Source of the DNA: an uncultured virus (IMG/VR IMGVR_UViG_3300033998_000455)
Lineage: Duplodnaviria > Heunggongvirae > Uroviricota > Caudoviricetes
IMG/VR virus record: IMGVR_UViG_3300033998_000455
Reading direction: 5' to 3' (one strand)
DNA: 64,000 bases
Shown here in pieces: positions 1 to 59,981 of the stretch; the stretch's first letter is position 1; each line of letters begins with the position of its first letter. The notes under the pieces are model-generated. The model saw only the letters and a program-made list of their open reading frames with translations. It was not told the origin of the DNA and ran no database searches. The translations under genes and the position numbers were made by a program.

Positions 1-205
1 TTATCTCACCTCTCTTTTTAATTATGGCATGATTTTCTTCATATTTGAAGAATAACGTTCCATTTTTAAAATTATTATAACCACTTTACTTTAGTGCTAT
101 TCATCTTTTTTTAATTTTAGCACGTTATTCTTCAGAAGTAAAGAAAATCGTTCCGTTTTTAAAAAATAAACCAAATGATTATTTGCTTTTTTTACCATAA
201 AAAAT

Positions 206-254
206 AAACCCACCAAGTTGCTTGATAATTACAATCGAGCTACTCAGTGAGTTT
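206..254 (-). terminator. Long imperfect hairpin followed by a T-run, downstream of the 1107-aa recombinase
   Basis: aaacccaccaagttgcttgat (206-226) pairs imperfectly with atcgagctactcagtgagttt (234-254); adjacent A-run on the + strand. Confidence 0.55.
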
Positions 255-259
255 CATTT

Positions 260-3583: not shown

Positions 3584-3635
3584 AATAAAAACTCCTTTCT
3601 CTAGAGCTAACCTACTAATTTGCAGGTATGTTATT

Positions 3636-3663
3636 AATGGCTCTAGTCCAGAGATAATGCAAG
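3636..3663 (-). promoter_or_regulatory. CTTG-N16-GAG promoter-like motif (divergent copy) upstream of the 1107-aa LSR
   Basis: Minus strand CTTGCATTATCTCTGGACTAGAGCCATT; same 16-nt spacing as six other copies. Confidence 0.5.
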
Positions 3664-3738
3664 TACTATCTCTGAAATGAAAGAAGTTCTGGATTCAATT
3701 GATGATATTGGGTTTCCTATTTCTTTGCCTAAATGTTA

Positions 3739-4660
3739 CTACTCAGCTTTTTTACTCCTCTGTGGTCTTCTTCTTGCGTTTACTTCATATGAAACGCCGC
3801 ATTTTAGTTGAAACTCTACTCGCCATTTATTGTAGACGATTCCCTTCTCAATGACTTTGGTTAGGATGTCCGGATCAAAGTCTTCATCAGGTCCTTTGAT
3901 TTTTCCGAGGACTTCAATTAGGATTTTCAGATTCTCTTCAAGGTATTCACTTTCCTTTTTGTTCTCACTCAGCCCATCATACTCCATTTGAAGTATCTCT
4001 TGTTCGTATATCAAGTGCCTCATAGTCGCCTCGTAAATGGTCTCATTTGACCCTGATGATCTCGTAGCCATCGCAGTAATTTTATCTGTGATCCTATCGA
4101 TTTGGGTGCCCAGCTCATTTAGCCTTCTGTCTTCTTCCTCTGTTAATGAGGCTTCTTCAATGGCCAGCTCCACATCTTCAATCAGTTTAGCCTCATCCCT
4201 TTTTATGTCGAAGAGAAGCTTCATGAAGGCCCGCTCTAGTTCTTCCTCCCAGACATAACTGCATTTGCAGTCTTTAAAATTTGGATCTCTTTTGGAAGCA
4301 ACTCTACAGTGCCAAGCCGTGAACTTCACAGGTGCTCTATCCTCTCCACAGTGAGTGGTGAGCCGTCTTCTGGTGACTGGTCTTCCACACTCTCCGCAAA
4401 AGAGTTTATTTGAAAAAGGCGCTGCCCCGCTATAAGCCATGTTGTATTTATTGTCTGGATCCCTAAACATCTTACTACGTCTATTCAGCTCTTCTTGTAC
4501 CTTTTCCCAATCTTCCTCGTTAATGATCGCTGGATGGTGATTTCTAATATAGTACTGCGGCTGATGCTCTTTATTTCTCACTCGCTCATGGGTCAGAAAA
4601 TCTACCGTCACGGTCTTTTGTGCTAGACAATCACCTTTGTATTTTTCATTCGAAGTGATA
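3739..4660 (-). pseudogene. 5'-truncated large serine recombinase (C-terminal recombinase/Zn-ribbon/coiled-coil part; catalytic domain missing)
   Basis: From SNEKYKGDCLAQKTVTVDFL onward it closely parallels the 555-aa LSR at 12208-13875. Upstream sequence is AT-rich non-coding, and the called start (4683) is not homologous. Confidence 0.85.
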
Positions 4661-4730
4661 CGAGATGGATAAAAACACAACATATTGTGCTTTAAAATGT
4701 ATTTAAGTTACAATAAATACAATATGTAAT
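4645..4730. other. Putative att junction (prophage end)
   Basis: Abrupt switch from recombinase coding sequence to non-coding DNA; adjacent inverted repeat acatattgt (4680-4688) / acaatatgt (4719-4727). Confidence 0.5.
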
Positions 4731-5099: not shown

Positions 5100-6836
5100 T
5101 TAGTCTTCATTAATATCAATAGTAATGCCTAAAAGTTTTTCTGATTCATGATCATCTGTAAGAGTTAATACAATATTGTCATTTACAATTTTCTGGAAGA
5201 GTTCTGGCTCCATACACTCTTTAATTTCATTAAGCTGGTTTTGATTTACGGTAGCTATATACTGCTTTCTTGAGTCCCAAAATTCTTCAAATACAATCTT
5301 AAACAACTCGGCTTTCTGTCTTTCGTCAATACCATCAAATAATCTACTATCATGAAACAGAAAATCAATATTATGATTTTGACCTTTAAATAGTAGTGTC
5401 ATGTCATAACAAAAGATTTTAACATTATTTATTCCATCTGAGTTGTCAGACTCAATTTTTGCATCAATATTGTATCTTTGAAGATTCTCTCCGTCGTTAT
5501 TACTAACTGATAATCCTGCAACAGCATTTGGATAAAATCGCTTTGCTAAACCTCTAAAATAATCTCTTAACACATTAATTTCAGCCTCAATTTCAGCAAG
5601 AAAATTCTCTGCTGTTTCTGATTGTTCAAGTTGAATTTTCTCTGCATCACGTAGCTTTTCTTTATACTCTGATTGAAGGGATTGATATTTCTTTAAGCTT
5701 TCTAGTTTTGTCTTCAAATGAGCACTCTTATCACTAAGTGATAAAAATACATCAAGGGCTTGATGGTCTCCAAGATACTTCATTAAACGATCAAGTTCAC
5801 TTTTTAATCTATTTGCTACCTCAGATTTAGCTGCAATCTCTGATTCAAATTTATTTTTTTGTTCAAGAAGTCTTTTCTTCCTGTTTGTAACTAACTTCTC
5901 ATAGAATCTTTCTAAGTCGTTAAGAGTCTTTTTTAGATTTTCAGTAAAATGCACGTTCGCTTCTTCATATACTTTTGCAATATCATCCTGATTAGTCTTT
6001 GTTTCCATATTCAAACTCTTATTTACAGACTCAATATTGTTTTGAATCAGAATTATTTTATTATTTAGCGCAAATAATTCATTCTCTATCCTATCTGCTT
6101 CTTTTTGCACATCCCGGTAGTCTTCCGCAACCTTAAAGTTGCTAAGATTTCTTTCCAATTTCTCGATTTGTTCTTCCAAATCAACAATAGTCAATGCAAC
6201 ATCTTTATTACCCGTAAAGAAATCTCTTAGCAATTCATCATTTTTGAAATTGCCTTCTAAAGTTTTAATTCTATCTTGTTCTTTTCTGATGTTATATTTT
6301 TTCTGAGCTAGAAAAACATCAAGACCTAAAAGAAATGCATTATATAGCATTGTCTGATACTGATTATAGCTACCTGAAGCGCCGTTAAAATCGACGTACC
6401 ACTTTTTATTTGGTCTTATGAAAAACGGGAATAGGGATCTAAAGCTTAAATGTGAGATATCATCTGGTATATTAAAACATATAGACTCCATTTTAGAATT
6501 AAATTTTGCTAGTGTTAGTTCTTCATCATTCAGTACGATCCTATTTGGGTTTTCTGTCGTTCTCTTCGATGTATATTCTATTCCCCCGATAGAAAAATCC
6601 AAATAAAACTCCCAACCAGGGAGCTTGTTACAAAAGGATGTGTAATTTTTCTTTTTCGATCCCATGCAAAAATGGATTATATTGACCAATAGAGATTTTC
6701 CTACACCATTATAAGTTTTCCCATTATTTTTATTATCAGGATTTTTCTGTTTGGCAACAATGAAACTTAATCCTGTTTTATTAAATTCTACAGTTCTAAA
6801 GCTAGATTTATTGGCATAAACCTTTTTTAATTGCAT
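5100..6836 (-). CDS. lmuB: Lamassu / ABC-three-component SMC-like ABC ATPase (DUF2326-type, LmuB-like)
   Basis: Walker A NGVGKS, long coiled coil, SDG signature and FLFHDS Walker B variant; third gene of a three-gene operon. Confidence 0.8.
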   Translation of the reverse strand: MQLKKVYANKSSFRTVEFNKTGLSFIVAKQKNPDNKNNGKTYNGVGKSLLVNIIHFCMGSKKKNYTSFCNKLPGWEFYLDFSIGGIEYTSKRTTENPNRIVLNDEELTLAKFNSKMESICFNIPDDISHLSFRSLFPFFIRPNKKWYVDFNGASGSYNQYQTMLYNAFLLGLDVFLAQKKYNIRKEQDRIKTLEGNFKNDELLRDFFTGNKDVALTIVDLEEQIEKLERNLSNFKVAEDYRDVQKEADRIENELFALNNKIILIQNNIESVNKSLNMETKTNQDDIAKVYEEANVHFTENLKKTLNDLERFYEKLVTNRKKRLLEQKNKFESEIAAKSEVANRLKSELDRLMKYLGDHQALDVFLSLSDKSAHLKTKLESLKKYQSLQSEYKEKLRDAEKIQLEQSETAENFLAEIEAEINVLRDYFRGLAKRFYPNAVAGLSVSNNDGENLQRYNIDAKIESDNSDGINNVKIFCYDMTLLFKGQNHNIDFLFHDSRLFDGIDERQKAELFKIVFEEFWDSRKQYIATVNQNQLNEIKECMEPELFQKIVNDNIVLTLTDDHESEKLLGITIDINED

Positions 6837-7069
6837 CTTATAACACCCCCATCTTTTTCTTCAACTACTCCAATAGAGTGAAGAAATACAAGAGTGAGTA
6901 ACAAATTGTCAAAACTATGTTTTGCAGAAAATTGATTCTTAGATAAATCATTTTGATATTCGTTCCATAAAGAATCTATAGTTTTTATGGAATCAATTTT
7001 CCCTAATAAATATGCGCCAAAACCTAACAAGGATTCTGAAAAATGGGTATGTTTAGTTGGTATTATCAT
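6827..7069 (-). CDS. lmuC: ABC-three-component middle component (LmuC-like), 80 aa
   Basis: MIIPTKH...SLLGFG...LLLTLVFLHSIG pattern; overlaps both neighbouring genes. Confidence 0.72.
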   Translation of the reverse strand: MIIPTKHTHFSESLLGFGAYLLGKIDSIKTIDSLWNEYQNDLSKNQFSAKHSFDNLLLTLVFLHSIGVVEEKDGGVIRCN

Positions 7070-7977
7070 TCTTCTCCCTCCTTAATAGGTTCTTCAAAAA
7101 TATCACAAGTTTCAAAATACTTAGACATTATAATTATGACTGTTGTCTGATATATTTGTTGCACTTTGGGACTTAAACGATTAACAATATTCCAAAACAG
7201 CTCATCTGCGACGTATCTTTCTTTTTCTTGATGGTAAATCTCACTTAATTTATCCCTTAGAGAATCTGCAACAAAATTACTATTGTTTGATAGAAATTCC
7301 TCTAAATATACTACCTTTAAAAGACCGTTATATAAATACTCAGCGGTAACATCTGACAACCCATTAAATTGAATCTTTTCATCCAGATCAGGAAGCGTAA
7401 TGCTATACTCTTTATTATTATCTATAGGTAACTCCATAATGTAAGAAATTACTTCATTTAGTATAGAAAAATCTACGTTCTTTAAGTTATTTGGATCTGG
7501 TAGATATCCGATAATAGAAAAAATTTGGTCATCTTCTAAGGAAAATATTGTGTTTTCTAGATCTTTGGCAGTTAGTATCTTAGCATCCCTTAAGTTATGT
7601 GTTTCTTTTAAGCCCTGAATAATCTGCTCACAGTCAGCATTAACACCGTTGTATTTATCGTTTACAACAAAATAAAAATTATCAACTGGAGACCATTGTT
7701 CAATCAATCCCGAAAAATCTCTATTAATTTTCTTAACAAGCTCCACATAAGACTTAGTAATCTCTTCTGGAGCATATACTTGGAAATATGTACCTTCACT
7801 CTTTATATACCCATCATTTTTCCGGTCTCCAATATTTCCCCAAGGTTTTATTGCTTGGAATCCAGGATGCGCATAATACATTGTTTGAGTAAAGATATCT
7901 TCAAATGCTTGCCCATTTGCTTTAAATATTTTGTTTTGAAATTGCAATCTTGCAATACTACGCTCTTGAGCATTCAT
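7066..7977 (-). CDS. lmuA: Lamassu/ABC-3C effector: N-terminal PD-(D/E)xK-like nuclease plus conserved C-terminal domain (LmuA-like)
   Basis: FE...GDRKNDG...FQVYAP nuclease-like core; C-terminal YFETCDIFE. Start moved to MNAQ (7977), which follows a GGGAGG RBS. Confidence 0.75.
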   Translation of the reverse strand: MNAQERSIARLQFQNKIFKANGQAFEDIFTQTMYYAHPGFQAIKPWGNIGDRKNDGYIKSEGTYFQVYAPEEITKSYVELVKKINRDFSGLIEQWSPVDNFYFVVNDKYNGVNADCEQIIQGLKETHNLRDAKILTAKDLENTIFSLEDDQIFSIIGYLPDPNNLKNVDFSILNEVISYIMELPIDNNKEYSITLPDLDEKIQFNGLSDVTAEYLYNGLLKVVYLEEFLSNNSNFVADSLRDKLSEIYHQEKERYVADELFWNIVNRLSPKVQQIYQTTVIIIMSKYFETCDIFEEPIKEGEE

Positions 7978-8060
7978 CAAGTCAATCCTCCCCAAAAAAT
8001 TCTTATCATTACCATTATAGAACAAATCTATTTGTTTGTAACCCATTTTCTAAATTAATT

Positions 8061-8109: not shown

Positions 8110-11100
8110 TTACTCCGTATAGTACTTCTGATCATGGCTGTAGATGAATTCTGGAATCGTCCGCTTTAGTCTCTCCATTTCAACCAGTGGATTGATTATC
8201 GTTGTCCTGAAATGTTCAATTGTCATCACGCCTCCCATGAATTCTAACATCTCATGGCTAGTTCTAGGCGTTCTACAATACTTCATAAGCTTTTTTATTT
8301 CCGGGCCGTTTAAAAAATCTAGTCGCTTCAAGAAGTTCTCAAGCTTTCTACGCTTGGTGATGAGCCTTTTATAATTCTCATAGGTTATTGGTGCGGACCA
8401 TCCAAGTCCGACTTTCAGCGTGAATGTAATTGCCCCATCTCTATTGATTATGGCAGATTCAATCAGCCTTTCAAATAAGTCTTTGTTAAAGCTCGCTTCT
8501 TCTACCTTAAGACCCGTATCTAAAATGTTTGCAGGCAGCAGTTCTTTTCCATACCTGGTTTGATCGAACCCTTGAAAATCCACTCTTCGCTTCTTCCCTA
8601 AAAGATCTTGAAGTTTGTAACTTTTAAAGAACCACTCCATTTCTGATTGTAGATGTTGTTGCCGCTCTCTTTTTTCGGTGTAGATCTTTAGGTGTTCCTG
8701 AATGGCCACAATCTTGCTCGTTAGCATGTCAATCCGCTGTGAGTCTCTTCCCTTTTTATTAAGCTCCTCATCTACCGCTTCATAAAGCTTTTGATACAAC
8801 GCATTCATTTCATCGATCAGCTGCTTTTCATTACTCAGTTCTTCTTCACTTACCTCAAGCTCATCTATTTTCTTTTCATAGTATGTTCTGAATTCTGGAT
8901 TTGAGATCATTTCAATCAGCAGATGCTGAAAATTAATTTCCAGGTATTCTTGATTGAACTGTTTAACGTCACATACCTGAAGCATATTCTGCAGGCCATA
9001 ACCACATCGCCAAAATAATGTCGCGCTTGATTTTTCTTTGGTCCTTTTCCTCTCAATTTCACCTGTTGTATCGTCACGTTTCTGAATTCGTTTTTTATTC
9101 ATATATCGTCCAAACCCTACTGTACTTCCACACTCTCCACACTTGAATTTGTCAGTAAACACTTCATTTTTCACTTCTTCTTTTTCAAAACTCAGATGCA
9201 CTCTTTTCATGCTCTTTAGTCGGTCAGCTCTCATTTGTTGCACTTCTTCCCATACATCCTTCTCAATAATTGCTGGGTGATGATCTTCTATGTGAATCAT
9301 GGGAATCTCTCCCCGGTTTGGTACAAGTGGTTGCTTGCGGTCCGGATTTTTGTACTTTTGATTGTGAATATAATCTCCTTTATAAACAACGTTATCCAGG
9401 ATGTTCTTAATAGAGGAATTGCTCCAAAGTCCTGAGCCACTTGGTGGAACGATTCCCTCGTCATTAAGGCTTTTATAGATATCTGCTCGTCTCACCCCAT
9501 TCAAGTAATCCGTATAAATGCGCCTAACAATGGCAGCTTCCTCTTCTTTGATGACCCACTCTTTCTTCTCATTGTATTCATACCCATAGTTAAGCCTTCT
9601 TGGCCTTACAATCCCTCTACTGGCCAGCGCTCGTTTGCCCCAAGAGATGGAGCTTCCAATATTTCTACTCTCCTGCTGCGCTAAGGCCCCCATCAGGCTG
9701 ACTATCAGCTCGCTGGTATCATCTTCTGTTGATATATTTTCTTTTTCGAAAAATATAAATGTCGGTGACTCTAACTCTCTCAAAATCCTTACATACTTAA
9801 TCGCATCTAAAGTATTTCGACTAAAGCGAGACAACGATTTTGTCAGGATCAAATCTATTTTTCCTGATTTGCAATCAGTGATCATTCTATTGAAGCCTTC
9901 TCGGTGCTTTGTTGAAGTTCCAGTGATGCCTTCATCTACATAGATGCCGGCAAACTGATACTTGGGGTTTTTAAGGATGGCGTAGGTATAAAAAGCGATT
10001 TGGGTTTTCAGACTTGTTTCTTGCTCTTCTTTATCCGTCGACACTCGAACGTAGGCAGCGACCTTTAGCTTCTTCATATTTTCAATCTTTGGATGGTTAT
10101 TGTCTTTTACATTTTTATAGATGCGACTCATCAACTGCATGTGTTGCTGATGATCGATCTGTGTTACTTGAGGTAATGCCACATCGGTTTCCTCCTCTCT
10201 GTCATATTTTTCGATGACTTCATCAAGATGAAGATGCTCTGTTTTTTCTATACGATTATCTTTAGTATCTGATACATATGAAGCTCTTGATATTAAGTCT
10301 TTTGTAGTTAGTGCCTTGGTCTCTCTTTCATTAGCATGAAATGCTTCAGACCCGGTAATGAGTTTCGTTCTCTCTATTTTTTCGTTCCTTGTTTTTCGGA
10401 AGTCCTCAGCTTCCCTTTTCCTGAGTTCAACATCACCCATTTGGGTTTCACTGCCATTAATCCAGTGAATCGTATAATCTTCATGAGTATAAATGGTCAC
10501 AGAAACAATCCAGGCTCTCATTAGCTCCAGGGTTAACTCTGTTAAAAACTCTACTGAATTCTTTCCTTCACTAAGCCAGTCAAGAGCCATGTTCCGGTAT
10601 TTCCTATCGTCCTCTATCTGATTGATTTTCTCTTCAAATTCTCCATATTGCTTACGCATATCTTCTACATCTTCTATAGTAAATCGGGATCCGACAAGAT
10701 GCTCAGCAATCTCAATTTCCGTTAAGTATTTGAGCCGATGAAACTCAAAGTGGTCATTCTTGTTTACCCTCTCTAATATTTTCTCCAGCTCTTTTACAGT
10801 TCTGTCACTTCCAAAATCAAACCATTCTTCAAAACCGCTTTGAAGGATATCGCGCATAACTTCTTCTCTGATATAGCTTGTAGGACACAGCTCCTTATGC
10901 CCCACACGTAATTTACAGCCCCAATACGCTGCTTTCACTCGGTCTGTCGTTCTATAATGGATATTACCACAGTAGCCACAAATAATCCGTCCTGCAAAAG
11001 GGCTGATCGTCTTTTCTGAAGCCGTCGTTTTATTTGGTCTGTTTTCCTCAATAAGCTTTTGCACTTTCTCGAAGGTTTCCAAATCAATGATCGGTGGGTT

Positions 11101-12045
11101 TGCATTTTCAATTAGAATCTTATCTCTCATGCCCTCTGATGACCTAACCCTGTTCGTCATAAGATCCTTGTTTGTAGTTCTACCGATGTAATTTCCTGTG
11201 TAAATCGACAGGGTTAATATTTTTTTTACTGATGAAATATTCCATGTATCCAGTCCTCTAGGCGTTTTGATACCACTAAGAGTCAATGCTCTCATGATGT
11301 CTGTTTGAGATTTGCCACTGAGGTATTCTTTGTAAATCCAGCGGACAACTTCTGCTTCTTCGTTGATAATTCTAAGCTCTGATCTTCTAGAGTCTTTAAC
11401 AAGTTCATATCCATAGGTCTTCTGGAAATAGGGCCTTCCACTTAGTAACCTTTGTTCCACTCCCCACTTGCCTAGTTCTGACATAGCTTCTATTTCAGCT
11501 TGAGATAGGCTTCCGTAGGTTGATAATAAAAATGTATTATAATCGATGGACGTGTCGATTCGTTCTTTCTCGAAATACACCCCCACCCCGTGTTCTTTTA
11601 ACTCTTCGACGGCTTCTAGGAGCTCTTTCGTGTTCCTAGAGAACCGTTGTACACTTTTTGTGATGATTAAGTCTAGTTTTCCTTCCTCGGCATGGCGCAG
11701 CATTCTTCTGAAACTGCGTCTATCCTTTATTGTTCTGCCAGAAATATTATCATCAAAATAAATTCCGACAAATTTCCAGTTAGGTTTATTCCGAATTAGT
11801 TCGGTATAATGGCTCATCTGATTTTGAAGCGATCTTCCTCTTTTATTAGGTGTTGGACTCACTCTACAATAAGCAGCTACCCTTACTTCATCATCCGTTC
11901 TTTCAAGCGGACTTTTCCTCATTTCATCTAAAGGATTCCATAGTGTTTGAACCCACTGCCTTGTCTCATTGGGATTCAGGTTTTCAGTTTCACCCAATTG
12001 ATATACGGTTGCTTTACTTTCAGCATCATCTGATGTTTTGCCCAT
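8110..12045 (-). CDS. Double-headed large serine recombinase with a C-terminal winged-helix-like extension, 1311 aa
   Basis: AAYCRVS and AAYVRVS catalytic motifs, two TKSxxRFSRN motifs, two Zn ribbons; extra tail PRTSHEML...HFR...PLV...TIP...QKY. Confidence 0.92.
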   Translation of the reverse strand: MGKTSDDAESKATVYQLGETENLNPNETRQWVQTLWNPLDEMRKSPLERTDDEVRVAAYCRVSPTPNKRGRSLQNQMSHYTELIRNKPNWKFVGIYFDDNISGRTIKDRRSFRRMLRHAEEGKLDLIITKSVQRFSRNTKELLEAVEELKEHGVGVYFEKERIDTSIDYNTFLLSTYGSLSQAEIEAMSELGKWGVEQRLLSGRPYFQKTYGYELVKDSRRSELRIINEEAEVVRWIYKEYLSGKSQTDIMRALTLSGIKTPRGLDTWNISSVKKILTLSIYTGNYIGRTTNKDLMTNRVRSSEGMRDKILIENANPPIIDLETFEKVQKLIEENRPNKTTASEKTISPFAGRIICGYCGNIHYRTTDRVKAAYWGCKLRVGHKELCPTSYIREEVMRDILQSGFEEWFDFGSDRTVKELEKILERVNKNDHFEFHRLKYLTEIEIAEHLVGSRFTIEDVEDMRKQYGEFEEKINQIEDDRKYRNMALDWLSEGKNSVEFLTELTLELMRAWIVSVTIYTHEDYTIHWINGSETQMGDVELRKREAEDFRKTRNEKIERTKLITGSEAFHANERETKALTTKDLISRASYVSDTKDNRIEKTEHLHLDEVIEKYDREEETDVALPQVTQIDHQQHMQLMSRIYKNVKDNNHPKIENMKKLKVAAYVRVSTDKEEQETSLKTQIAFYTYAILKNPKYQFAGIYVDEGITGTSTKHREGFNRMITDCKSGKIDLILTKSLSRFSRNTLDAIKYVRILRELESPTFIFFEKENISTEDDTSELIVSLMGALAQQESRNIGSSISWGKRALASRGIVRPRRLNYGYEYNEKKEWVIKEEEAAIVRRIYTDYLNGVRRADIYKSLNDEGIVPPSGSGLWSNSSIKNILDNVVYKGDYIHNQKYKNPDRKQPLVPNRGEIPMIHIEDHHPAIIEKDVWEEVQQMRADRLKSMKRVHLSFEKEEVKNEVFTDKFKCGECGSTVGFGRYMNKKRIQKRDDTTGEIERKRTKEKSSATLFWRCGYGLQNMLQVCDVKQFNQEYLEINFQHLLIEMISNPEFRTYYEKKIDELEVSEEELSNEKQLIDEMNALYQKLYEAVDEELNKKGRDSQRIDMLTSKIVAIQEHLKIYTEKRERQQHLQSEMEWFFKSYKLQDLLGKKRRVDFQGFDQTRYGKELLPANILDTGLKVEEASFNKDLFERLIESAIINRDGAITFTLKVGLGWSAPITYENYKRLITKRRKLENFLKRLDFLNGPEIKKLMKYCRTPRTSHEMLEFMGGVMTIEHFRTTIINPLVEMERLKRTIPEFIYSHDQKYYTE

Positions 12046-12089
12046 AGAAAAAACTCCTCTCTTTTGGTGACATATCTAGCTACTAGGTA

Positions 12090-12118
12090 TGTTCACTCTG
12101 TACAGGATATAATGCAAG
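12090..12118 (-). promoter_or_regulatory. CTTG-N16-GAGTGA promoter-like motif upstream of the 1311-aa LSR
   Basis: Minus strand CTTGCATTATATCCTGTACAGAGTGAAC. Confidence 0.6.
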
Positions 12119-12207
12119 TACTTTATCCTGATTGAGGGAGTTTTCATCTTTCTATGTTAGACGCCTACAATATTAAGGCGTTAGTATTCATGATTTACTT
12201 CAGCTTC

Positions 12208-13875
12208 CTACATGTATTCTTTACGGTCAGCGCTGATGCTTCTTTTGATACTGCATTTAAAATGGAAATCGACCTGGTGATTATCATGCACGATACCTTT
12301 TTCTACGGTCTTTACAAAAATATCTTCTCGAAAACCATCGTCATCGCCCAAGTCACCCAAACTCTCAATGAACTCTTCTAACTGTTTCTTTATAAATATG
12401 CTTTCAGTTTCCATCTTGCTTAAATTTTCATACTCGAGCTGAATGATTTCTTGCTCGTAAATCATGTGTCGCATAGTTGCGTCATAAACAGGATCACTTG
12501 TCGCTGATTCTCTCGCTGCCAAATCACTGATTCGATTTGTAATATGTTCAAGTTTCGTTTCAAGTTCGATCAGTTTTTCTTTCTCCGATTCTGTAAGTGC
12601 ATAGTCTTCACTGGCAAGTCGCGCTTCTCGAATCACTTCATCACGATCTTCATTCATCTCATGGAGAATTTTCATAAAGGCTTTTTCTAATACTTCTTCC
12701 CATACATAACTCGCATTACATTTAATGCCTTTGTCTATATCCCTATGGGCCGCCACTCGGCAGTGCCATGTTGTGAAGTGGTACTTTTCGCCATTTTTCG
12801 ATGAAGTCATTCGCCTGCGTGTTACAGGCCTGCCACAATGCCCGCAAAACAATATATTGGAAAATACGGATTTCCCGCTATATGTCATCTTATATTTTTT
12901 CTCGGGATTTCTTAGCATATCGTTTCTTCTTATGAGTTCCTTTTGTACCTTATCCCAATCTTCTTTTGAGATAATTGCAGGATGGTGATTTTGAATGTAA
13001 TATTTCGGTTTATGGTCTTTGTTTGGAACTCTTTTATGGCTTAAAAAGTCTATTGTTACCGTTTTTTGAGCCACACAGTCCCCCGTATATTTTTCTTGGA
13101 TTAATATTTTTCGAATGGAATCACTGGTCCAGGTTTTCTTACCTCTTGCTGTTAAAACACCGTCTCGCATCAGTCCTTTAGCAATTCTTGCCGTTCCTTT
13201 TCCTTCTAAAAACTCTCTGAATATCCGTCTCACAACTTCTGCTTCCTCTTCTAGAATAACAATCTTTCCATCATCATTCGTATCGTACCCTAAAAAGTAT
13301 GTGGTTGGAATATGGGGTTTCCCTTGAGAGAAACGCTTCGTCACACCCCAGGTAGCATTCATGCTCAATGATTTTGATTCTTCCTGCGCGAGGGAACTTA
13401 AAATCGTCAAAAATAATTCTGATTTCGAATCAAGTGTGTCCAGGTTTTCCTTCTCAAAAAATACGCCCACCTGCGGATCTAAGTTCTTCAATAACCTTAC
13501 ATAGCTTAAACAATCAAGGGTGTTTCGAGCGAATCGGCTGATGGATTTTGTTAGAATGTAATCTATTTTTCCCGCTTTAGCATCTTCAATCATCTCCAGA
13601 AATCCCGTTCTGTTCTTTGTATTTGTACCAGTGATGCCCTCATCCGTGTATATTTTATACAGCTCCCACGCTGGGTTTTTATTTATATAGTCCGTATAAT
13701 ACGAAACCTGAAGTTCATAAGATGATGCTTGATGTTCAAGCAAAGTCGATACACGCGCATAGGCCGCAATCCTTTTTTTGCGTCCATCATGATGTTCATC
13801 ACTTCTTCCTGTCCTGCTGACTACTGGTATAATGCGGACTTTAGGGTTCATGCTTGTTGATAGATTGGTTTGCAT
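12208..13875 (-). CDS. Large serine recombinase (LSR-B), 555 aa
   Basis: AAYARVS, TKSISRFARN, HHPAII, CGHCG Zn ribbon, coiled coil. Confidence 0.93.
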   Translation of the reverse strand: MQTNLSTSMNPKVRIIPVVSRTGRSDEHHDGRKKRIAAYARVSTLLEHQASSYELQVSYYTDYINKNPAWELYKIYTDEGITGTNTKNRTGFLEMIEDAKAGKIDYILTKSISRFARNTLDCLSYVRLLKNLDPQVGVFFEKENLDTLDSKSELFLTILSSLAQEESKSLSMNATWGVTKRFSQGKPHIPTTYFLGYDTNDDGKIVILEEEAEVVRRIFREFLEGKGTARIAKGLMRDGVLTARGKKTWTSDSIRKILIQEKYTGDCVAQKTVTIDFLSHKRVPNKDHKPKYYIQNHHPAIISKEDWDKVQKELIRRNDMLRNPEKKYKMTYSGKSVFSNILFCGHCGRPVTRRRMTSSKNGEKYHFTTWHCRVAAHRDIDKGIKCNASYVWEEVLEKAFMKILHEMNEDRDEVIREARLASEDYALTESEKEKLIELETKLEHITNRISDLAARESATSDPVYDATMRHMIYEQEIIQLEYENLSKMETESIFIKKQLEEFIESLGDLGDDDGFREDIFVKTVEKGIVHDNHQVDFHFKCSIKRSISADRKEYM

Positions 13876-13877
13876 AA

Positions 13878-15569
13878 TCAGTCTTCTCCTTTCTCAATTT
13901 TCACTTCTTTTATATCTCCATTCGCCCAATATAAAAGCAGCGTTCCTTTGTCTGTATAAGTCATTCTGATAAACCATGCTCTTAGAAACCTAGTATCTTC
14001 AGATAATTTATTCATCCCCTGCACAATTTTGGTTCCACTTTTTATTTTTTCTAATGACTTTATAGCTTCTTCCCTGTACTCAGCATCCTTATCGATAAAC
14101 TCCCATAGATGCCTTTTAGATTCTAATTGTTTCTCAACTTGAATCCGTTGTTCTTTGAATGTTGACTCATCACGAAGTTCCATAATCGCTCTATTTTCAT
14201 CCACCAAAGCTTTTTCTAATGACAGTCTTAGCCAACTTTGCTCTGACTCTCGATTTAACTCAATATTCTTAAGCTCTTTTATTAAATGTATGACAAGTTT
14301 TTTGTTTACACTGGTGCCATCCTCCAGATACTTCCTAGTGAACTCACTTTTTAGAGTCCTCACAATATCTAGTTCATCAATCGCTTCCATTTCGCAAAGT
14401 AATTTACTCTTAAGACTGCTCGAACATCGCCATAATACTTTCTTTCTTCCCGCATATCGATGGTAGTTCTTCCCGCAGCACCCACACTTGATTCTGCTAG
14501 TAAACTCATTTACGCTCTTTTTCTTTCTATCGTACATGACTGATTTTTTCTCAAGAATTCTCTGCACTCTGTCAAAGACTTTCCTGTCAACAATTGGTTC
14601 ATGATGATCGCTTATATAGTACTGAGGTCTTTCTCCATTGTTTACTTTGGTTTCATGTGTTAGGTAATCTTTCGTGTAAGTCTTTTGACAAAGAGCATCA
14701 CCTACATAACGCTCATTACTTAAGATGCTTTTAATATTTGAATCTTTCCAGTCGATACGACCATTTGGTTTTTTATAGCCTTTTCTTATGAATTCTCTGG
14801 CTATTTCAATAAGGCTGCAACCTTCTAAATACAAATCATAAGTCTCTCTTACAATCTTAGCTTCCTCAAAATCAATGGTATAGGGTACACCATTTACTTT
14901 TTTATAACCCAGAATCCTTGTGAATAAAGGCTTTCCACTTGAGAACCTTTTTGTATGAGCCCAGGTTAGATTTTCTGAAATCATCCTGCTTTCTTCTTGC
15001 GCGACTACCGATAACAGGGTCAGAATAAATTCACTCTCCATACTTCCTGTATCAACAGATTCCTTCTCAAAGATGACCCTAATTCCATTTTCTTTGAGCA
15101 CTCTAATTGCTTCTAATGTGTCCATTACATTTCTCGCAAATCTCGAGATAGACTTACATAAAATCAAATCAATATTCCCTTCCAAGGCATGTCGCATCAT
15201 CTTATTGAATCCCGCTCTATGAGCTCTTTTGGTTCCAGACTTACCCCGGTCCGAGTAGATGCCCACAAACATCCATTCTGCGTTATTTCTAATGTAGTTC
15301 GTGTAATGGATTGTTTGGTTTTCAAGGGAATTCATTTGCATTTCTTCTTCTGTACTCACTCGACAATATGCACAGACTCTTAGTCTCTCAGGTTCTTCCT
15401 TAATATTAGTTGTTGATGTCATTTGAGATTTCATCCCAATTTCAATGACTTGTCTCTCTTGGGATTGAAAATCGATGCTGTCATAGAACCCACTTTCATA
15501 CAACGATCCAGACATATTCTTCCTCCTTCCTTTATCCTTTTTCAACCTGACCACCTTTTTGTTTATCAA
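13878..15569 (-). CDS. Large serine recombinase (LSR-A), up to 563 aa (true start probably downstream, near MSGS)
   Basis: CAYCRVS, CKSISRFARN, HHEPIV, CGCCG Zn ribbon. Confidence 0.92.
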   Translation of the reverse strand: MINKKVVRLKKDKGRRKNMSGSLYESGFYDSIDFQSQERQVIEIGMKSQMTSTTNIKEEPERLRVCAYCRVSTEEEMQMNSLENQTIHYTNYIRNNAEWMFVGIYSDRGKSGTKRAHRAGFNKMMRHALEGNIDLILCKSISRFARNVMDTLEAIRVLKENGIRVIFEKESVDTGSMESEFILTLLSVVAQEESRMISENLTWAHTKRFSSGKPLFTRILGYKKVNGVPYTIDFEEAKIVRETYDLYLEGCSLIEIAREFIRKGYKKPNGRIDWKDSNIKSILSNERYVGDALCQKTYTKDYLTHETKVNNGERPQYYISDHHEPIVDRKVFDRVQRILEKKSVMYDRKKKSVNEFTSRIKCGCCGKNYHRYAGRKKVLWRCSSSLKSKLLCEMEAIDELDIVRTLKSEFTRKYLEDGTSVNKKLVIHLIKELKNIELNRESEQSWLRLSLEKALVDENRAIMELRDESTFKEQRIQVEKQLESKRHLWEFIDKDAEYREEAIKSLEKIKSGTKIVQGMNKLSEDTRFLRAWFIRMTYTDKGTLLLYWANGDIKEVKIEKGED

Positions 15570-15637
15570 TCGAATTCTTTAAAATATAAAACCCTGAAAC
15601 GCCTGCAATTCAAGGCTTCAAGGTATCGGCGTCATAG

Positions 15638-15669
15638 TATATATCACTCAGAACCGAGTATTTATCAAG
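15638..15669 (-). promoter_or_regulatory. CTTG-N16-GAGTGATATAT motif upstream of the recombinase cassette
   Basis: Minus strand CTTGATAAATACTCGGTTCTGAGTGATATATA. Confidence 0.65.
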
Positions 15670-15746
15670 TCATTTCTACTATATATAGGGATAAAAATAA
15701 GCCGATGCTATAAAGATAACACCGGCCCAATTTTGCAATTTTTCTT

Positions 15747-16727
15747 CTAATCATATTTCATGTAGGCATCAAATCCCGCCTTCTTTAGTCGGGTCATAAG
15801 GGCTTCCGCATTCTTCTTGTCACTGAAGGCCCCTACCTGCACTCGGTAGTATTTATTGCCAGATTCCTTCTCCGGTTCAGCCTCCACACCAGCACTGACC
15901 ATCTCAAGATTATCTTTATCAACCCAAGTCATAATGCCAGCTTTTTCATCCATGGTGCTTTTCAGAATGGTTTTGCCTAGAAGGACACATTCCTTGCCTC
16001 CTTTGATCACAGGTTTTCCATTAAACACATCCTGGGTGATCAGGTGATAATTCCACTTCACCCAGTTTGGAATAATAGGACCGCCTGGATAATAGGTTCT
16101 GGAAGACGCTTTGATTTCAACGATATCACCCGCTTCAAAACCCTCTTTACCTTCACCTGCAGTCTGTAGTGCTTTCTTTACTGCAGCTCTAAAGGTATCC
16201 ATATTCTCTCCATGCTTTGGAAACCAATGGCCCACATCAGAATGGTTAGATGCAATTCCTTTCTTGTTTCCTTCTGCATGGCTGATGATATCTTTTTCAG
16301 TCAGACCGTACTCACTGCAAAGGGAGACACAAAGGTTCACTGCATTCTTCCAGGCTGCCCTAAAGTAGGGTTCATTTTTCTTCACATCATAGCCTACCAT
16401 CTGATTGTTAGAATAAGAAAAACCACCCGGTTCGCATATCTCAAAACCGATGTGGGTATTATTAGCATCTCCACCTGCATGCCAGCCCCTATGATTCCAA
16501 GGCAGGTACTGCCAGATTTCTTTGTCATCCAGGAAGGCATGTACACAAACCTGACGGTTGATTTCACCAGCCCTATAGGACTTGTTCCACCGACTAAACC
16601 AACCTTCTGCCATTACTCCCGGTGTGGCAGTGGAATGAACCATGATGCCTTTAGGTGTGATCTTTCTCCCGGCTGTATAACAATCATTTCTGGTCATGTA
16701 CTTAGTTTTTAAATTACTTAGTGCCAT
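15747..16727 (-). CDS. Endolysin: N-acetylmuramoyl-L-alanine amidase (Amidase_2) with C-terminal SPOR domain
   Basis: IMVHST, WHAG, IGFEICE, SH...SNHSD; C-terminal YRVQVGAFS...LKKAGFDAY. Start at MALSN after GGAGG. Confidence 0.92.
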   Translation of the reverse strand: MALSNLKTKYMTRNDCYTAGRKITPKGIMVHSTATPGVMAEGWFSRWNKSYRAGEINRQVCVHAFLDDKEIWQYLPWNHRGWHAGGDANNTHIGFEICEPGGFSYSNNQMVGYDVKKNEPYFRAAWKNAVNLCVSLCSEYGLTEKDIISHAEGNKKGIASNHSDVGHWFPKHGENMDTFRAAVKKALQTAGEGKEGFEAGDIVEIKASSRTYYPGGPIIPNWVKWNYHLITQDVFNGKPVIKGGKECVLLGKTILKSTMDEKAGIMTWVDKDNLEMVSAGVEAEPEKESGNKYYRVQVGAFSDKKNAEALMTRLKKAGFDAYMKYD

Positions 16728-16742
16728 CCTTATCGCCTCCAT
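16714..16742. repeat. 29-bp imperfect direct repeat (partner at 18895-18923)
   Basis: ttacttagtgccatccttatcgcctccat vs ttatttacttccatccttatcgcctccat; 26/29 identical. Confidence 0.85.
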
Positions 16743-16800
16743 TAAATTTTAAGCACAAAAAAAGACACTCTTTTTGAGTGCCTTCCTGCTATTTGTTCTT

Positions 16801-17427
16801 TTATAAATCTCCGCTATCTTCCAAAACTTCTCTAAGAAATTCGTGAATGGAAAAGTCGGGATTCGAGTAAATTGTTGTATTTCCAATCTTTGTACCATCA
16901 GCTTTTACTTTACTCTTACGGATTGTTTCCGCCCTTCTAATTGCTGATTTTACATCTTCCAAGGTTACCTGACTTAGTATCTTATTAATGACTTCTTCGT
17001 TCTTTATATCCTCAGTAGATTTCAACCCAAAGATTCTTCGAACATCTGAGATATAAGCATCGTTTCTTGAAACGCTCTTATTGTAGTCCTCTTTATGAAG
17101 GATCAACCATAAATCAAAATTCACACTGCTGTATGCATGATAGATGTGCCTGCCCTCTTTTCTTTTTGATGGTCTAAGCTTTTTGTTCAGCGAATCACAG
17201 ATTTCAATATTTCTCTTGAACTCCACATCGTTATGGTCAAAATCAAATACTGCAGCACTGTCATAGTTCTCATATCTTTTTTCAAGTCGATGTGGTAAAT
17301 CCTCAAAGGTATTAAACTTAACCACTTTCCTTGGAAAATCTTTAATCAGCTTAGCCACATGACTCAGATACATTGTTTCCTGCTGTCCATCACAAATGCA
17401 TAAATATGCTTTTCTATAGTTTGCCAT
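16801..17427 (-). CDS. rloB: RloB-family (TOPRIM-like, AbiLii-like) protein
   Basis: CDGQQETMY, VFDFD and YSSVNFDLWLILH motifs; paired with an upstream AAA ATPase. Confidence 0.8.
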   Translation of the reverse strand: MANYRKAYLCICDGQQETMYLSHVAKLIKDFPRKVVKFNTFEDLPHRLEKRYENYDSAAVFDFDHNDVEFKRNIEICDSLNKKLRPSKRKEGRHIYHAYSSVNFDLWLILHKEDYNKSVSRNDAYISDVRRIFGLKSTEDIKNEEVINKILSQVTLEDVKSAIRRAETIRKSKVKADGTKIGNTTIYSNPDFSIHEFLREVLEDSGDL

Positions 17428-18733
17428 CTTCATCCCCCTCACTACTGTTTTGATTTAACAGCTTAGAAAAGTCGATGAAGGGAAGCGCTCCGTAGTTTCC
17501 TTTGAAGTAATTGATTAGATAATTATGGTCATTTCTCACTTCTTCAGCGCCAAAATCTGCAAGAGAATAGATGACACTTTCAAAAGAATCCGTATCCTTT
17601 TCAACGAACCTGATCTGATCTCTTCTGAATATCTTATTGTTTAGATAAATCGGATTATGCGTTGTGAAAATCAACTGTGCGCCAGCTTTATTTAAATCAC
17701 TGTCATTAAAAAGCGCCAAGATCCCTTTAATCAGTTCTGGGTGTATTGCTGCATCGAACTCATCAAGAATAAATACCCCACCTGATTTGAAAAGTTTCTC
17801 AAAAGGAATCGCAAAATCAACAAGTTTAAGTGTTCCCCTAGATTCCATAAGCTCTGCCGGTATTACGATATTCTCATCATGGTATTTATAGATTGAGACA
17901 AGCTCCATACTGGATGACTCTTTATCTTCTGATTTGTTTGATTTAAAGGCTATACCCTGTGGGCCAAAATCTGCATTCTTGACAAACCCATCAAGGATCT
18001 TGTTCCATGCAAAGAAATCTTTCTTCGGGCTGTCTTCCAATGAAAATGTTAAGTTCGTTTTCTTCAGTGTGAAGTCACTCACCACAACAAGTTCTTCTTT
18101 AAAGAAGTCTAGCACCATATCCGCTAATTCATTGCTAATAGTACTTTTAAAAGCCCTCGATAAGAACAGCTCAGATTCATCAATGTTTTCATTGATTTTC
18201 TTCTCAAACTGTTTGAGCAGCTTCTCATCAAATTCGATTATATTCAGTGCTTTTTTCTCTTTATTGATCTGGATCTTATCTTTTTCTCTTGTATATATGT
18301 TTGTCTTTTGGTCAGACTTATCAATATAGGTCAAAAATTCAGATACAATACGTCTAGTTTCTTTTTTGAAAGTGCTCACTTCAACTTCAAAACCAAATTC
18401 TAGCCGTTTTCCTCCATAAATAAAATCAATCTCAAAACTCATGGGCTTTTCAGATTCTTGATAAGCAAATGGGTAGAGTTCAAGGTTCTTTAAGTTTGGT
18501 ATATTAGCCTCAAGGGACCCTGAAAGAACAATATCTTTCATTACCGCAAGGGACATGATGATATTGGATTTACCACTGGCGTTGGCTCCATATATTACTG
18601 CTGAGGGTACAATCCTCAAATCATATTCTCTAATGAGATTATCATTAAGTGTGGTTTGTCTGCCAGCTATCATCGAAAGACTGGTCATTTCTTTAAACGA
18701 CCTGAAATTTGAAAATCTATAATCAATTAACAT
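17414..18733 (-). CDS. AAA_21-type ABC ATPase (RloA/AbiLi-like)
   Basis: FSNFRSF, GANASGKS, ESRGT, ILDEFDAAIHP, QLIFTTH, RRDQI. Confidence 0.88.
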   Translation of the reverse strand: MLIDYRFSNFRSFKEMTSLSMIAGRQTTLNDNLIREYDLRIVPSAVIYGANASGKSNIIMSLAVMKDIVLSGSLEANIPNLKNLELYPFAYQESEKPMSFEIDFIYGGKRLEFGFEVEVSTFKKETRRIVSEFLTYIDKSDQKTNIYTREKDKIQINKEKKALNIIEFDEKLLKQFEKKINENIDESELFLSRAFKSTISNELADMVLDFFKEELVVVSDFTLKKTNLTFSLEDSPKKDFFAWNKILDGFVKNADFGPQGIAFKSNKSEDKESSSMELVSIYKYHDENIVIPAELMESRGTLKLVDFAIPFEKLFKSGGVFILDEFDAAIHPELIKGILALFNDSDLNKAGAQLIFTTHNPIYLNNKIFRRDQIRFVEKDTDSFESVIYSLADFGAEEVRNDHNYLINYFKGNYGALPFIDFSKLLNQNSSEGDEDGKL

Positions 18734-18771
18734 TGTAAAACCTCCTCAATTAGGATTTCGTTAGTAGTTTT

Positions 18772-18800
18772 ATTATACCCCAAAGAGAAGGTTTTTACAA
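18772..18800 (-). promoter_or_regulatory. Sigma-A promoter of the ATPase-RloB moron
   Basis: TTGTAA-17 nt-TATAAT on the minus strand. Confidence 0.65.
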
Positions 18801-18894
18801 CTTTACTTGAGGTTTTTTCTCAAGTTTGTCTTGTTTTTAGAGTTATAAGTCTTCCTATTGTCCTTTTATGTCGATTAAAGACATATAATTCGTT

Positions 18895-19311
18895 TTATTT
18901 ACTTCCATCCTTATCGCCTCCATCTTTTAGCTGCTCTAGGATGTCTTTGAGCTTCTCTGGGATAGGCAGTCCAAGTCTTGATGCATTTTCAATGATGCTA
19001 ATCCCTTCATTGGACAGATAAAAGAAAATCACTGCTGTTCTAATTGCACTACCATCTCCGATAATGTTCTGATCAATGATGTGCGCCACACCTACTAGGG
19101 AGAAAATCACTACTTTCTTGAAAATCCCCTTAGCACCTACATCGCTGGATAAGTGCTTTTCTAGCACAGCACACATGACCCCAAGCAAATAGTCGATCAC
19201 CACGAAGGCAATCAAAGCATACAAAAACCCATCATAACCTCCCAAAAAGTAACCCAACCAACCGCCCACAGCTGCAAATATCATCTGAACAATGTTCCAA
19301 ATTTCTCTCAT
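18895..19311 (-). CDS. Phage holin (Phage_holin_4 type)
   Basis: Hydrophobic segments; DYLLG, SS..GAKGIFKK, NEGISIIEN..RLGLPIP. Confidence 0.92.
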   Translation of the reverse strand: MREIWNIVQMIFAAVGGWLGYFLGGYDGFLYALIAFVVIDYLLGVMCAVLEKHLSSDVGAKGIFKKVVIFSLVGVAHIIDQNIIGDGSAIRTAVIFFYLSNEGISIIENASRLGLPIPEKLKDILEQLKDGGDKDGSK

Positions 19312-34020: not shown

Positions 34021-34040
34021 AGGCCTCTCCTCCTTTCAAA

Positions 34041-34553: not shown

Positions 34554-34613
34554 AACTTTCACCTCCTTCATTTACTGTAAAGAAAAAGAGCCATTTTCAG
34601 GCTCCAAATGTTA

Positions 34614-59921: not shown

Positions 59922-59981
59922 TTAAGACCTCCTAAAATTGCTATATGTGCTTGCCTGATTATTATCGTCTCATAAAATTGA

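Follow-up and report, generated by a model that had tools for sequence, protein, structure and literature searches.

Serine integrases are leading tools for the insertion of large DNA; what limits their reach is that a single protein has to recognise each half of each site. The single-gene phage enzymes (LI/A118, SPbeta SprA, Bxb1, phiC31) combine a resolvase-type catalytic domain, a recombinase domain and a zinc ribbon with long helices, and act as a homotetramer in which one protein, together with a recombination directionality factor (RDF), serves all four half-sites. We know of no sequence signature common to RDFs. In the CcrA/CcrB system of SCCmec, two different co-transcribed serine recombinase genes are jointly needed for one element, and elements with accessory cargo stack in tandem at one chromosomal site (PMC3146451, PMC3783163). 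The serine integrase triplets of Streptococcus ICEs consist of three adjacent genes at the element end; they cluster by position, which points to descent from an ancestral multi-gene module, and one known target, the gene traG, belongs to a different resident element (Ambroset et al. 2016, PMC4701971). Co-oriented stacks downstream of one entry point, with a repeated bounding site, are described for the Dehalococcoides ssrA islands (PMC3146451) and for accretion of the ICESt1 type; older ssrA islands lose their integration genes, and in these islands the repeat copies the host target (ssrA) and both sides of an island are bounded. Finally, unlike subunits have been tethered or paired for asymmetric sites or a fixed direction in engineered integrase-RDF fusions (PMC5737554) and Cre-type obligate heterotetramers (PMC8789052). 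A description of a natural fused double large serine recombinase (LSR) cassette was not found in the literature searched.

The locus described here lies in a stretch of 64,000 nucleotides, which we call the window. It carries two adjacent LSR genes (A and B) followed by a fused double LSR gene (F1, 8110-12045, minus strand, 1311 aa), and its features are as follows.

15570-15730, minus strand: control region 5' of A; it includes a promoter-like TTGATA-17-GATATA and, in the leader, a hairpin that resembles a terminator
15698-15729, minus strand: amidase terminator in the control region
15689-15697, minus strand: TTTTTATCC in the control region
15679-15688, minus strand: palindrome CTATATATAG in the control region
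13878-15569, minus strand: LSR-A, one complete unit (Pfam Resolvase, Recombinase and Zn ribbon; tree clade A)
12208-13875, minus strand: LSR-B, one complete unit of 555 aa (Pfam Resolvase, Recombinase and Zn ribbon; tree clade B)
10381-12045, minus strand: N-unit of F1, aa 1-555, A-like, nucleophile Ser63 (Pfam, BLASTP, tree)
10096-10380, minus strand: linker of F1, aa 556-650, charged and not conserved (no consensus column in two alignments)
8401-10095, minus strand: C-unit of F1, aa 651-1215, B-like, nucleophile Ser669 (Pfam, BLASTP, tree)
8113-8400, minus strand: C-terminal winged-helix extension of F1, aa 1216-1311 (Pfam, AF2, Foldseek)
5100-8046, minus strand: cargo slot with a three-gene ABC-3C / PDC-M68 defence system (genes 7066-8046, 6827-7069 and 5100-6836)
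4651-4679, minus strand: END, a site that precisely marks the right end of the A-B-F1-cargo element (TTTTATC, 17 nt, junction between 4651 and 4650)
3739-4650, minus strand: dB, a truncated B, what is left of an older copy (end of the recombinase domain, zinc ribbon, C-terminus)
260-3583, minus strand: F2, a second intact fused double LSR of 1107 aa, short class without winged helix (N-unit 2027-3583, linker 1775-2026, C-unit 263-1774)

An ORF check of the window bore out the three consecutive LSR genes of the preliminary description, all on the minus strand and with the coordinates claimed for them. According to Pfam, the catalytic domain (PF00239) occurs once in A, once in B and twice each in F1 and F2; the Recombinase domain (PF07508), which follows helix E, occurs once each in A and B and as two stretches in each fusion; and the zinc ribbon (PF13408) is found in A, B, the N-unit of F1 and both units of F2. 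LSR-A has 563 aa if counted from a TTG, but the ATG at 15515, which has a good ribosome site, is the likelier start. LSR-B begins 2 nt past the stop of LSR-A and F1 follows after a gap of roughly 160 nt, with no cargo between the three genes; the control region is conserved 5' of A in other complete cassettes. The module is positioned behind the prophage lysis genes, as in every case with that region annotated. Our working view, held tentatively, is that A-B-F may be the integration module of a temperate siphovirus-like prophage, with four paralogous LSR units in three genes.

The 1311-aa protein had been described as two complete LSR units with intact nucleophile motifs, and it indeed carries AAYCRVS at residues 57-63 and AAYVRVS at 663-669. 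All four end-strings quoted for the resemblance of its halves to A and B are present in the sequences. The N-half is A-like as proposed, with a BLASTP score of 232 bits against A, collinear to the C-terminus of A, and 208 against B. The likeness of the C-half to B also stands (249 against B, 204 against A), but the end of F1 itself is not B-like: similarity to B runs out near residue 1215, and some 96 more residues form a winged-helix domain. This extension matches the Pfam family Fic-like_C with an E-value of 0.0008, below that family's cut-off, and the same family is precomputed for several F1 homologues. Its AF2 model has a pLDDT of about 90, and the top rows of a Foldseek search are all winged-helix proteins, with no match at E<=0.001. 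The extension is restricted to the long class of fusions. The F1 fusion is genuine and no assembly error, because independent metagenome contigs cover the linker: contigs of two other runs cross it with no difference and no gap (X2 record 3, window 10037-10513; X3 record 10, window 9644-10377).

Among 49 homologues of F1, 43 have a length of 1093-1322 aa and come from many genera, and of the 150 best representatives, drawn from 1.84 billion, 23 are collinear double-unit relatives of 988-1346 aa; the homologues are thus not consistently split into two genes. F follows A-B in all 13 A-B pairs examined, in fixed order, co-oriented and with clades matching the position in the module, and also in the single phage genome record that carries it. 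A tree of 84 units resolves A, B, F_N and F_C as four clades, each a single branch at a support of 98-100. The F_N clade also includes three single proteins of 520-549 aa; in F_C, which is monophyletic, the rows used gave no single-unit protein. The two halves group as had been predicted, A being sister to F_N (support 100) and B to F_C (support 99), and the F_N and F_C subtrees are congruent. This topology indicates one old A-B duplication and then one fusion of the duplicated pair. Neither half of the fusion shows a relaxed catalytic domain, since the catalytic Ser, Arg and Asp and the four zinc Cys are kept in 23/23 N-halves and 23/23 C-halves, as they are in 9/9 A and 9/9 B; Y-x-R-x-S, D and SRFxRN are kept in the same 9/9, 9/9, 23/23 and 23/23 sequences.

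The module shares its domain set, and apparently its attP-type half-site geometry, with the single-gene phage integrases; among solved structures, the nearest relative over the full length is SPbeta YokA/SprA (E 3e-15). Where those enzymes use one protein and an RDF, however, there are here four diverged units and no RDF was identified, and the rule that one chain is one LSR subunit is broken, as F1 and F2 each carry two complete units per chain. Compared with CcrA/CcrB, A-B-F has four units instead of two, two of them are covalently fused, and the host element is a tailed prophage. Each gene of the Streptococcus triplets carries one unit according to PMC4701971, where we saw no fusion mentioned, whereas the third gene is double here, giving four catalytic domains. 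The engineered proteins of PMC5737554 and PMC8789052 are laboratory constructs, while F occurs in nature, is old and conserved, and joins two complete enzymes.

The preliminary description took the cassette to be single and isolated, and had overlooked a second fused gene, F2, and a truncated B-like gene, dB, in the same window. The locus is instead the newest member of a stack with an older, truncated cassette and defence cargo. F2 is covered without difference by contig X4 record 17 (window 1-3811). The gene dB starts at about residue 259 of B, lacks the catalytic domain and is 51% identical to residues 256-552 of B; its open frame extends to 4683, inside END. The cargo genes match CTD10, MC6 and DUF2326 in Pfam and PDC-M68A and PDC-M68B in PADLOC. 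In run X5, one contig joins 8114 to 5061, omitting precisely the cargo slot, and one departs from the window sequence exactly at 4650.

Stacks of this kind recur in Bacillota, with a complete A-B-F, cargo, a precise 24-25-nt end site and then a truncated recombinase gene. The pattern TTTTATC, 13-18 nt and a sharp junction precedes 17 of the 19 truncated units, and three arrays also have an END copy at their host-proximal edge. In one array, the site interrupted at the host-proximal junction is present uninterrupted in two related genomes, with homology beginning exactly at the END junction. END resembles an attP half-site in length and motif position: its TTTTATC falls at bp 18-24 of a 25-bp half-site, and in the LI integrase structure the zinc-ribbon motif of the attP half-site, there TTTAGTATC, lies at the equivalent position (PMC3783163). 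One A-B lineage (L004, L081, L163; 90-96% identical) comes with three F types that share only about 55% identity, and the same END1 follows each of them. Whereas the repeat of the ssrA islands is a copy of the host target, here it is the element's own end, and it is paired with a recombinase gene truncated at motifs that differ by lineage; as in accretion arrays the elements are co-oriented, with END copies between them, but bounding by the repeat on both sides, with a regenerated target, was not seen. A role of END as supplier of an in-frame start was considered and rejected, as the END1 junctions are all in codon phase 0, most without an in-frame start codon, and the END2 junctions vary in phase (by eye).

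How could four diverged units share the work? As the preliminary description proposed, A and B may act as a heterodimer, and F may be a tethered heterodimer that serves an asymmetric site or the control of directionality. We favour, with reserve, a reading in which A, B and F are four subunits of one synaptic tetramer, A/B acting on the element's own site and F on the target. A single copy each of A, B and F would supply the four subunits; the A/B pair would bind the attP-type site of the element, with the END sequence as its right arm, and the single-chain F would bind the target site, giving each of four unlike half-sites its own reader. Where the chromosome already holds a related element, the target would often be a motif in the recombinase gene of that resident. 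After insertion, a second step, either collapse of the tandem prophages by homologous recombination or a deletion, would leave the resident reduced to a truncated B, its own F and its defence cargo, with the newcomer cassette upstream, and repeated rounds would build stacks of defence cargo.

Several observations bear on this proposal. F types swap freely relative to A-B, and this speaks against the four units being tightly co-adapted. A conservative serine-recombinase crossover demands a common dinucleotide, and END and the target flanks share none at their junctions, which counts against the tetramer reading. An inverted END copy as left arm was not found with up to 6-9 substitutions allowed, nor was an END copy at the left of complete prophages, and no attP emerged. 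Only the L079/L080/L082 lineage has a convincing inverted END-like site directly 5' of A. Metagenome contigs scanned for exact copies of the window's END gave no match, and scans of viral contigs for END1 and END2 returned only more junctions of END with truncated genes and no joint of END with START (attP).

The truncation motif tracks the lineage of the upstream F in 11 of 12 cases, although the cases are few and some are possibly common by descent (G2 36605 and L002b/L164), and F class is in part confounded with B lineage and END type, as these two are with each other. The motifs (^ marking the truncation) are N^TKW for F1126-like fusions (3/3), G^V(F/Y)FEKE for F1104/F1107-like fusions (3/4, in three different paralogues, B, F_N and F_C), D^FL(S/T)H for F1226/F1232 (3/3) and D^CLRY for F1223 and F1228 (2/2). 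None of about 20 truncation points lies in A. Integration that cuts the integrase's own frame does not fit, as the newest cassette always has a complete B. Plain nested insertion, which leaves the 5' half of the target to the left of the newcomer, was considered as well: with the queries used, no LSR fragment representing a 5' part was found at 16-64 kb of the window and no further catalytic domain on the 131-kb contig C4 of G001, and neither DNA nor protein queries of G002 gave the 5' part of its DnaD-like target. Plain insertion is therefore insufficient, and the second step must be assumed. In Niallia, comM was considered as a primary target and set aside, since only a 3' fragment lies at the array end and an intact copy is present elsewhere in the genome.

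That truncation motifs go with fusion lineages suggests that phages may aim at one another's integrase genes. In its furthest form the proposal combines a fully asymmetric tetramer with F lineages that home into recombinase motifs of resident rivals, the rival being disabled and displaced and its defence genes kept, so that defence islands would grow one displaced prophage at a time; we regard this version as clearly unlikely. The stacks themselves are a concrete route for the accumulation of anti-phage genes beside prophages. If the tetramer reading is true, a natural system whose four diverged units share the work, with two of the units tethered, would offer an off-the-shelf model for programmable asymmetric sites and for directionality built into subunit identity, and the conserved fusion design could show how serine integrases read asymmetric DNA sites.

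A division of labour by reaction seems rather unlikely. One set, for instance A+B, would integrate and F would excise, or the roles would be swapped; F would stand in for a separate directionality factor, and in the long F the winged helix would help to sense or hold the attL/attR state. The cassette has no recognisable RDF gene, the remnants retain an intact F without A and the catalytic part of B, the long F has an extra domain of DNA-binding type, and engineered integrase-RDF fusions are described as controlling direction (PMC5737554). However, the short F, which lacks the winged helix, occurs in the same cassettes, and the link between F lineage and target motif fits a role in targeting better than one in excision. 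The absence of an RDF gene is itself a weak point of the argument, because RDFs are not recognisable by sequence.

That F alone is the integrase, with two single-chain dimers per tetramer, and that A and B work in a different reaction, for instance resolution of the F-plus-cargo segment or its exchange between phages, seems to us improbable. It agrees with F and cargo being the variable segment between a conserved A-B and a conserved END, and with F being intact in the younger remnants. Against it, A-B is never missing from a complete cassette (13/13), and A and B retain all catalytic and zinc residues.

Very little speaks for three independent integrases of nested or neighbouring elements, each an ordinary homotetramer, that came to lie side by side by chance. 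Element stacks do exist at the locus, and tandem LSR pairs of other clades are common, with separate LSR genes only in 72 of 76 genome loci; yet the A-B-F order is fixed with its two short gaps, no cargo separates the genes and the clades match the position.

That the fusion is an artefact of read-through, frameshift or misassembly of two genes is refuted as far as the sequence data reach: the single proteins within the F_N clade and one Heliorestis F split into 242 and 981 aa could be cited for it, but the window holds two fusions, both with linkers under independent contigs, the 43 long homologues come from many genera, and F_C is monophyletic without single-unit members among the rows used.

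In the AF2 model of F2, both units have a pLDDT of 80-90 and are separated by a disordered linker of about 84 aa with a pLDDT of about 30; the pTM of 0.47 gives no reliable relative placement of the two units, so that pairing between them is unreadable. The model predicts long paired helices after the zinc ribbon, and we infer a probable coiled coil in the zinc ribbon insert.

The locus is best seen as a conserved serine integrase module of four units, in which one protein is a natural double enzyme in a single chain: two single-unit large serine recombinases (LSR-A and LSR-B) and a fused double LSR (F, with halves F_N and F_C). This module likewise is best described as heading a stack of displaced, defence-gene-bearing cassettes. 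Every gene discussed in the window lies on the minus strand. The prophage is of siphovirus type; its lysogeny module lies near 56.3 kb, followed by replication, terminase, portal, capsid and tail genes and then by holin and amidase, as listed below.

Features of the prophage end and the recombinase region
32464-34571, minus strand: terminase
18895-19311, minus strand: holin
15747-16742, minus strand: amidase
13878-15569, minus strand: LSR-A, directly behind the amidase terminator
12208-13875, minus strand: LSR-B, starting 2 nt past the end of A
8110-12045, minus strand: F1, fused recombinase of 1311 aa
5100-8046, minus strand: three-gene ABC-3C defence system downstream of F1 (Pfam CTD10, MC6, DUF2326; PADLOC PDC-M68A/B)
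4679-4651, minus strand: END, putative element end site, with the junction between 4651 and 4650
3739-4683, minus strand: dB, 314-aa ORF, the C-terminal 55% of a B-type recombinase without the catalytic domain
260-3583, minus strand: F2, second intact fused recombinase of 1107 aa, with two of each domain

The preliminary description had the A-B-F1 cassette right and missed the ABC-3C system, dB and F2 downstream of it. The truncated dB is 51% identical to B residues 256-552, and F1 aligns collinearly with F2 along about 1200 residues with 34% identity. No further recombinase fragment was found at 16-64 kb of the window.

According to Pfam, A and B each contain one Resolvase, one Recombinase and one zinc ribbon domain, while F1 contains two Resolvase and two Recombinase stretches. 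The earlier observation of two complete LSR units in F1, preceded by A and B, is confirmed, including all the nucleophile motifs and end-strings quoted for it, and in BLASTP the N-half is indeed closest to A and the C-half to B. The four units share only 32-41% pairwise identity. The fusion is real and not an assembly error, since contigs from other metagenome runs (oil field, wastewater) span the F1 linker and the entire F2 without gaps. In an AlphaFold2 model of F2 both units have a pLDDT of 80-90 and residues 520-603 are disordered; the mutual placement of the units is not reliable (pTM 0.47). Fusions fall into two size classes, and those of the long class (about 1215-1311 aa, F1 included) carry a C-terminal extension of about 100 aa, modelled as three helices and a hairpin. 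This extension matches Pfam Fic-like_C weakly, and in Foldseek it resembles only winged-helix proteins, with no match reaching E<=0.001.

We calculated a tree of 84 units (23 fusions split before their second catalytic unit, with 9 A, 9 B and 20 further LSRs) using IQ-TREE with LG+G4 and SH-aLRT support. A, B and F_C are each monophyletic (support 99, 100 and 99, respectively), and a fourth clade (support 98) unites F_N with three single proteins of 520-549 aa. The sister group of F_N is A (support 100) and that of F_C is B (support 99), and the groupings within the F_N subtree match those within the F_C subtree, as expected if an A-B pair was duplicated once in the distant past and a single fusion came later. 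The evolutionary part of the earlier interpretation, that the fusion joins an A-like to a B-like unit, is therefore supported. The nucleophile Ser, the active-site Arg and Asp and the four zinc Cys are kept in 9/9 A, 9/9 B, 23/23 F_N and 23/23 F_C; judged from the sequences, there is no decay in either half of the fusion. The three single proteins in the F_N clade (P0077, P0079, P0081) could be unfused, or they could be fragments of fusions broken by a frameshift or by the end of a contig.

Among 5.8 billion protein clusters F1 has 49 matches, 43 of them 1093-1322 aa long. Most of these long homologues cover 96-100% of F1 at 33-42% identity; they come from Desulfitispora, Cytobacillus, Alkalihalophilus, Virgibacillus, Anaerotalea, Litchfieldia, Proteiniclasticum, Clostridium and Salisediminibacterium, and bear only the name “recombinase family protein”. 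An exhaustive HMMER pass with F2 over 1.84 billion representatives gave 3010 matches at E<=1e-30, and the best 150 included 23 collinear proteins of 988-1346 aa (the query among them), so the fusion family is diverse but small. The fused gene is present in only 4 of 76 genome loci fetched with the fusion profile and in 5 of 77 viral loci (7 of 77 when A-B-F triplets cut by a contig end are counted); the remaining loci hold ordinary LSR pairs of other clades. One of 50,697 phage records, the “Ca. Heliusvirales” gut phage PV036459.1, has a full-length relative, in the order endolysin, A, B, F (1276 aa, annotated as hypothetical), cargo. The word “recombinase” is absent from the main text of the Heliusvirales paper, and the open-access literature searched yielded no account of two complete LSRs fused in nature. 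In two 739-aa proteins (P0052, P0053), LSR domains are joined to CTD10, an ABC-3C domain that is also encoded by the gene immediately following F1; they could be real fusions or gene-calling read-through.

Wherever the sequence extends past an A-B pair of these clades, F follows it (13/13 pairs at 12 loci, and also PV036459.1). The window layout is repeated in four genomes. In Robertmurraya beringensis the stack reads phage, A, B, F1223 (other fusions are named by their length in aa), cargo, dB-F1126, ToxN/AbiQ, dB-F1232, cargo, dB-F1224, cargo, dF_N-F_C, cargo, dF_C, host genes, where d marks 5'-truncated units; Heliorestis acidaminivorans, Niallia hominis and R. andreesenii have two to four such modules each. 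The complete cassette is always adjacent to the phage, and damage is greater in the more distant modules. Of 21 cargo-slot ORFs submitted, 13 match anti-phage families (PDC-M68, AbiQ, PDC-S11 twice, AbiD, PDC-S14, AbiH, AbiI, PDC-M69B/C and a PbeA-like helicase) and 8 have no match. A contig of metagenome run X5 passes from the F1 stop (8114) straight to the cargo terminator (5061), which places the ABC-3C genes in an exchangeable slot.

A conserved END lies upstream of 17 of the 19 truncated units. It often consists of CTATATATAG, 2-3 nt, TTTTATC and 13-18 nt, followed by a sharp switch to recombinase coding sequence. Two families, nearly identical across genomes, adjoin different positions: END1 (ending in TTTTATCCATYCAGCCTCACGGCG at the junction) adjoins B residues 106, 122 and 277, F_C 87 and F_N 91, while END2 (ending in TTTTATCTAAnTCGnATCATGGGG) adjoins B 133, 168-170 and 259, F_N 150 and F_C 121. 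END is therefore part of the upstream element, with an exact boundary. One X5 contig departs from the window's sequence precisely at 4650 and from there on resembles the paralogous A coding sequence; we read it as a putative untruncated relative of dB. At the host-proximal edge of the arrays END adjoins host DNA: in R. beringensis a DnaD-like 3' gene fragment that precedes a GGDEF gene, in Heliorestis the sequence ahead of an S-layer protease gene, and in Niallia a comM-like 3' fragment. The DnaD-like gene is uninterrupted in two related genomes, and homology begins exactly at the R. beringensis junction. The distance from TTTTATC to the junction puts this motif at bp 18-24 of a 25-bp half-site, the place that the zinc-ribbon motif TTTAGTATC occupies in attP half-sites of LI integrase (PMC3783163). 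All seven END1 junctions (L002, L003, L004/G002:C50, L164-L166) are in codon phase 0, immediately behind a codon for Asp or Asn (GAY or AAC) in the intact gene; END2 junctions follow no codon-phase rule, and several have 2-5 nt (GG to TGGGG) in common with the target.

In three loci (L079, 8228-8301; L080; L082) the leader upstream of A contains TTTTATC, 41 nt and GATAAAA directly before the ribosome site, and the right half matches END2 in inverted orientation (ATGAYACGAGTTA...GATAAAA). In that lineage this may be a full att-type site, which the window's own leader does not clearly show. In a further locus, L077, whose A is 98% identical to that of the window, the sequence upstream of A resembles L080 as far as the leader hairpin and the window beyond it, which indicates a recombination break in the leader, between promoter and A.

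The motif cut in the downstream gene tracks the lineage of the upstream F in 11 of 12 cases with a nameable upstream element, although these target-motif and END correlations rest on small numbers and are partly confounded. With the junction marked by an arrow, F1126-like fusions are associated with N↓TKW (3/3), F1104/F1107-like with G↓V(F/Y)FEKE (3/4, in the three paralogues B, F_N and F_C, the fourth being a comM-like fragment), F1226/F1232 with D↓FL(S/T)H (3/3, at least two independent), and F1223 and F1228 with D↓CLRY (2/2). Moreover, one A-B lineage (L004, L081 and L163, 90-96% identical) is paired with three F types sharing only about 55% identity, each of which precedes END1. We propose that A and B would read the element's own site and F the target; the correlations are the pattern expected if this is so. 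The mechanistic part of the earlier interpretation, a tethered A-B heterodimer that could recognise asymmetric att sites or control directionality, is a plausible hypothesis.

Simple insertion was rejected: END and targets have no dinucleotide in common, searches for a left arm, attP or attL found none, the 5' portions missing from the truncated genes were sought without success at 16-64 kb of the window and in related genomes, and A contains no truncation points. Because simple insertion is insufficient, we assume a second step, which might be homologous recombination between tandem related prophages or deletion from END into the neighbour. In R. andreesenii (G004:C2:15600-29000 joined with L002), A and a 5' piece of B (residues 7-151) are followed by 14 kb with a tyrosine integrase, dB (137-554) and F1226; both breaks in B are at the FEKE motif, yet the pieces belong to different lineages. 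Serine integrase triplets of Streptococcus ICEs cluster by position and can target a gene of another element (PMC4701971), and paired CcrA/CcrB and tandem island stacks are described (PMC3146451, PMC3783163).

The window holds further genes of note, all on the minus strand. An AbiL-type pair (AAA_21 ATPase/AbiLi and RloB/AbiLii, 16801-18733) between holin and amidase is absent from one X5 contig, which joins 16723 to 18905; it is the second exchangeable slot for defence genes, this one within the lysis module. An AbiEi/AbiEii toxin-antitoxin-type pair (24044-25473) lies within the tail-gene region, where GC drops to 0.34. Past the lysogeny end, a DEDDh exonuclease (PADLOC DEDDh / PDC-S48) and a zinc-finger-AbiH protein (58479-61828) may belong to the element or to a host defence island. 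The phage regions 36899-41130 and 52220-53440 encode an amidoligase with a GGACT-like cyclotransferase, a SAM synthetase, a C5 DNA methylase and an N6/N4 DNA methylase with a ParB-N domain. About 95 nt behind the F2 stop is a 57-nt inverted repeat (15-165, 75% complementary) with a -10-like TTATAAT between its arms; contigs of three runs break at 15 and 71, so this repeat is present in several contexts.
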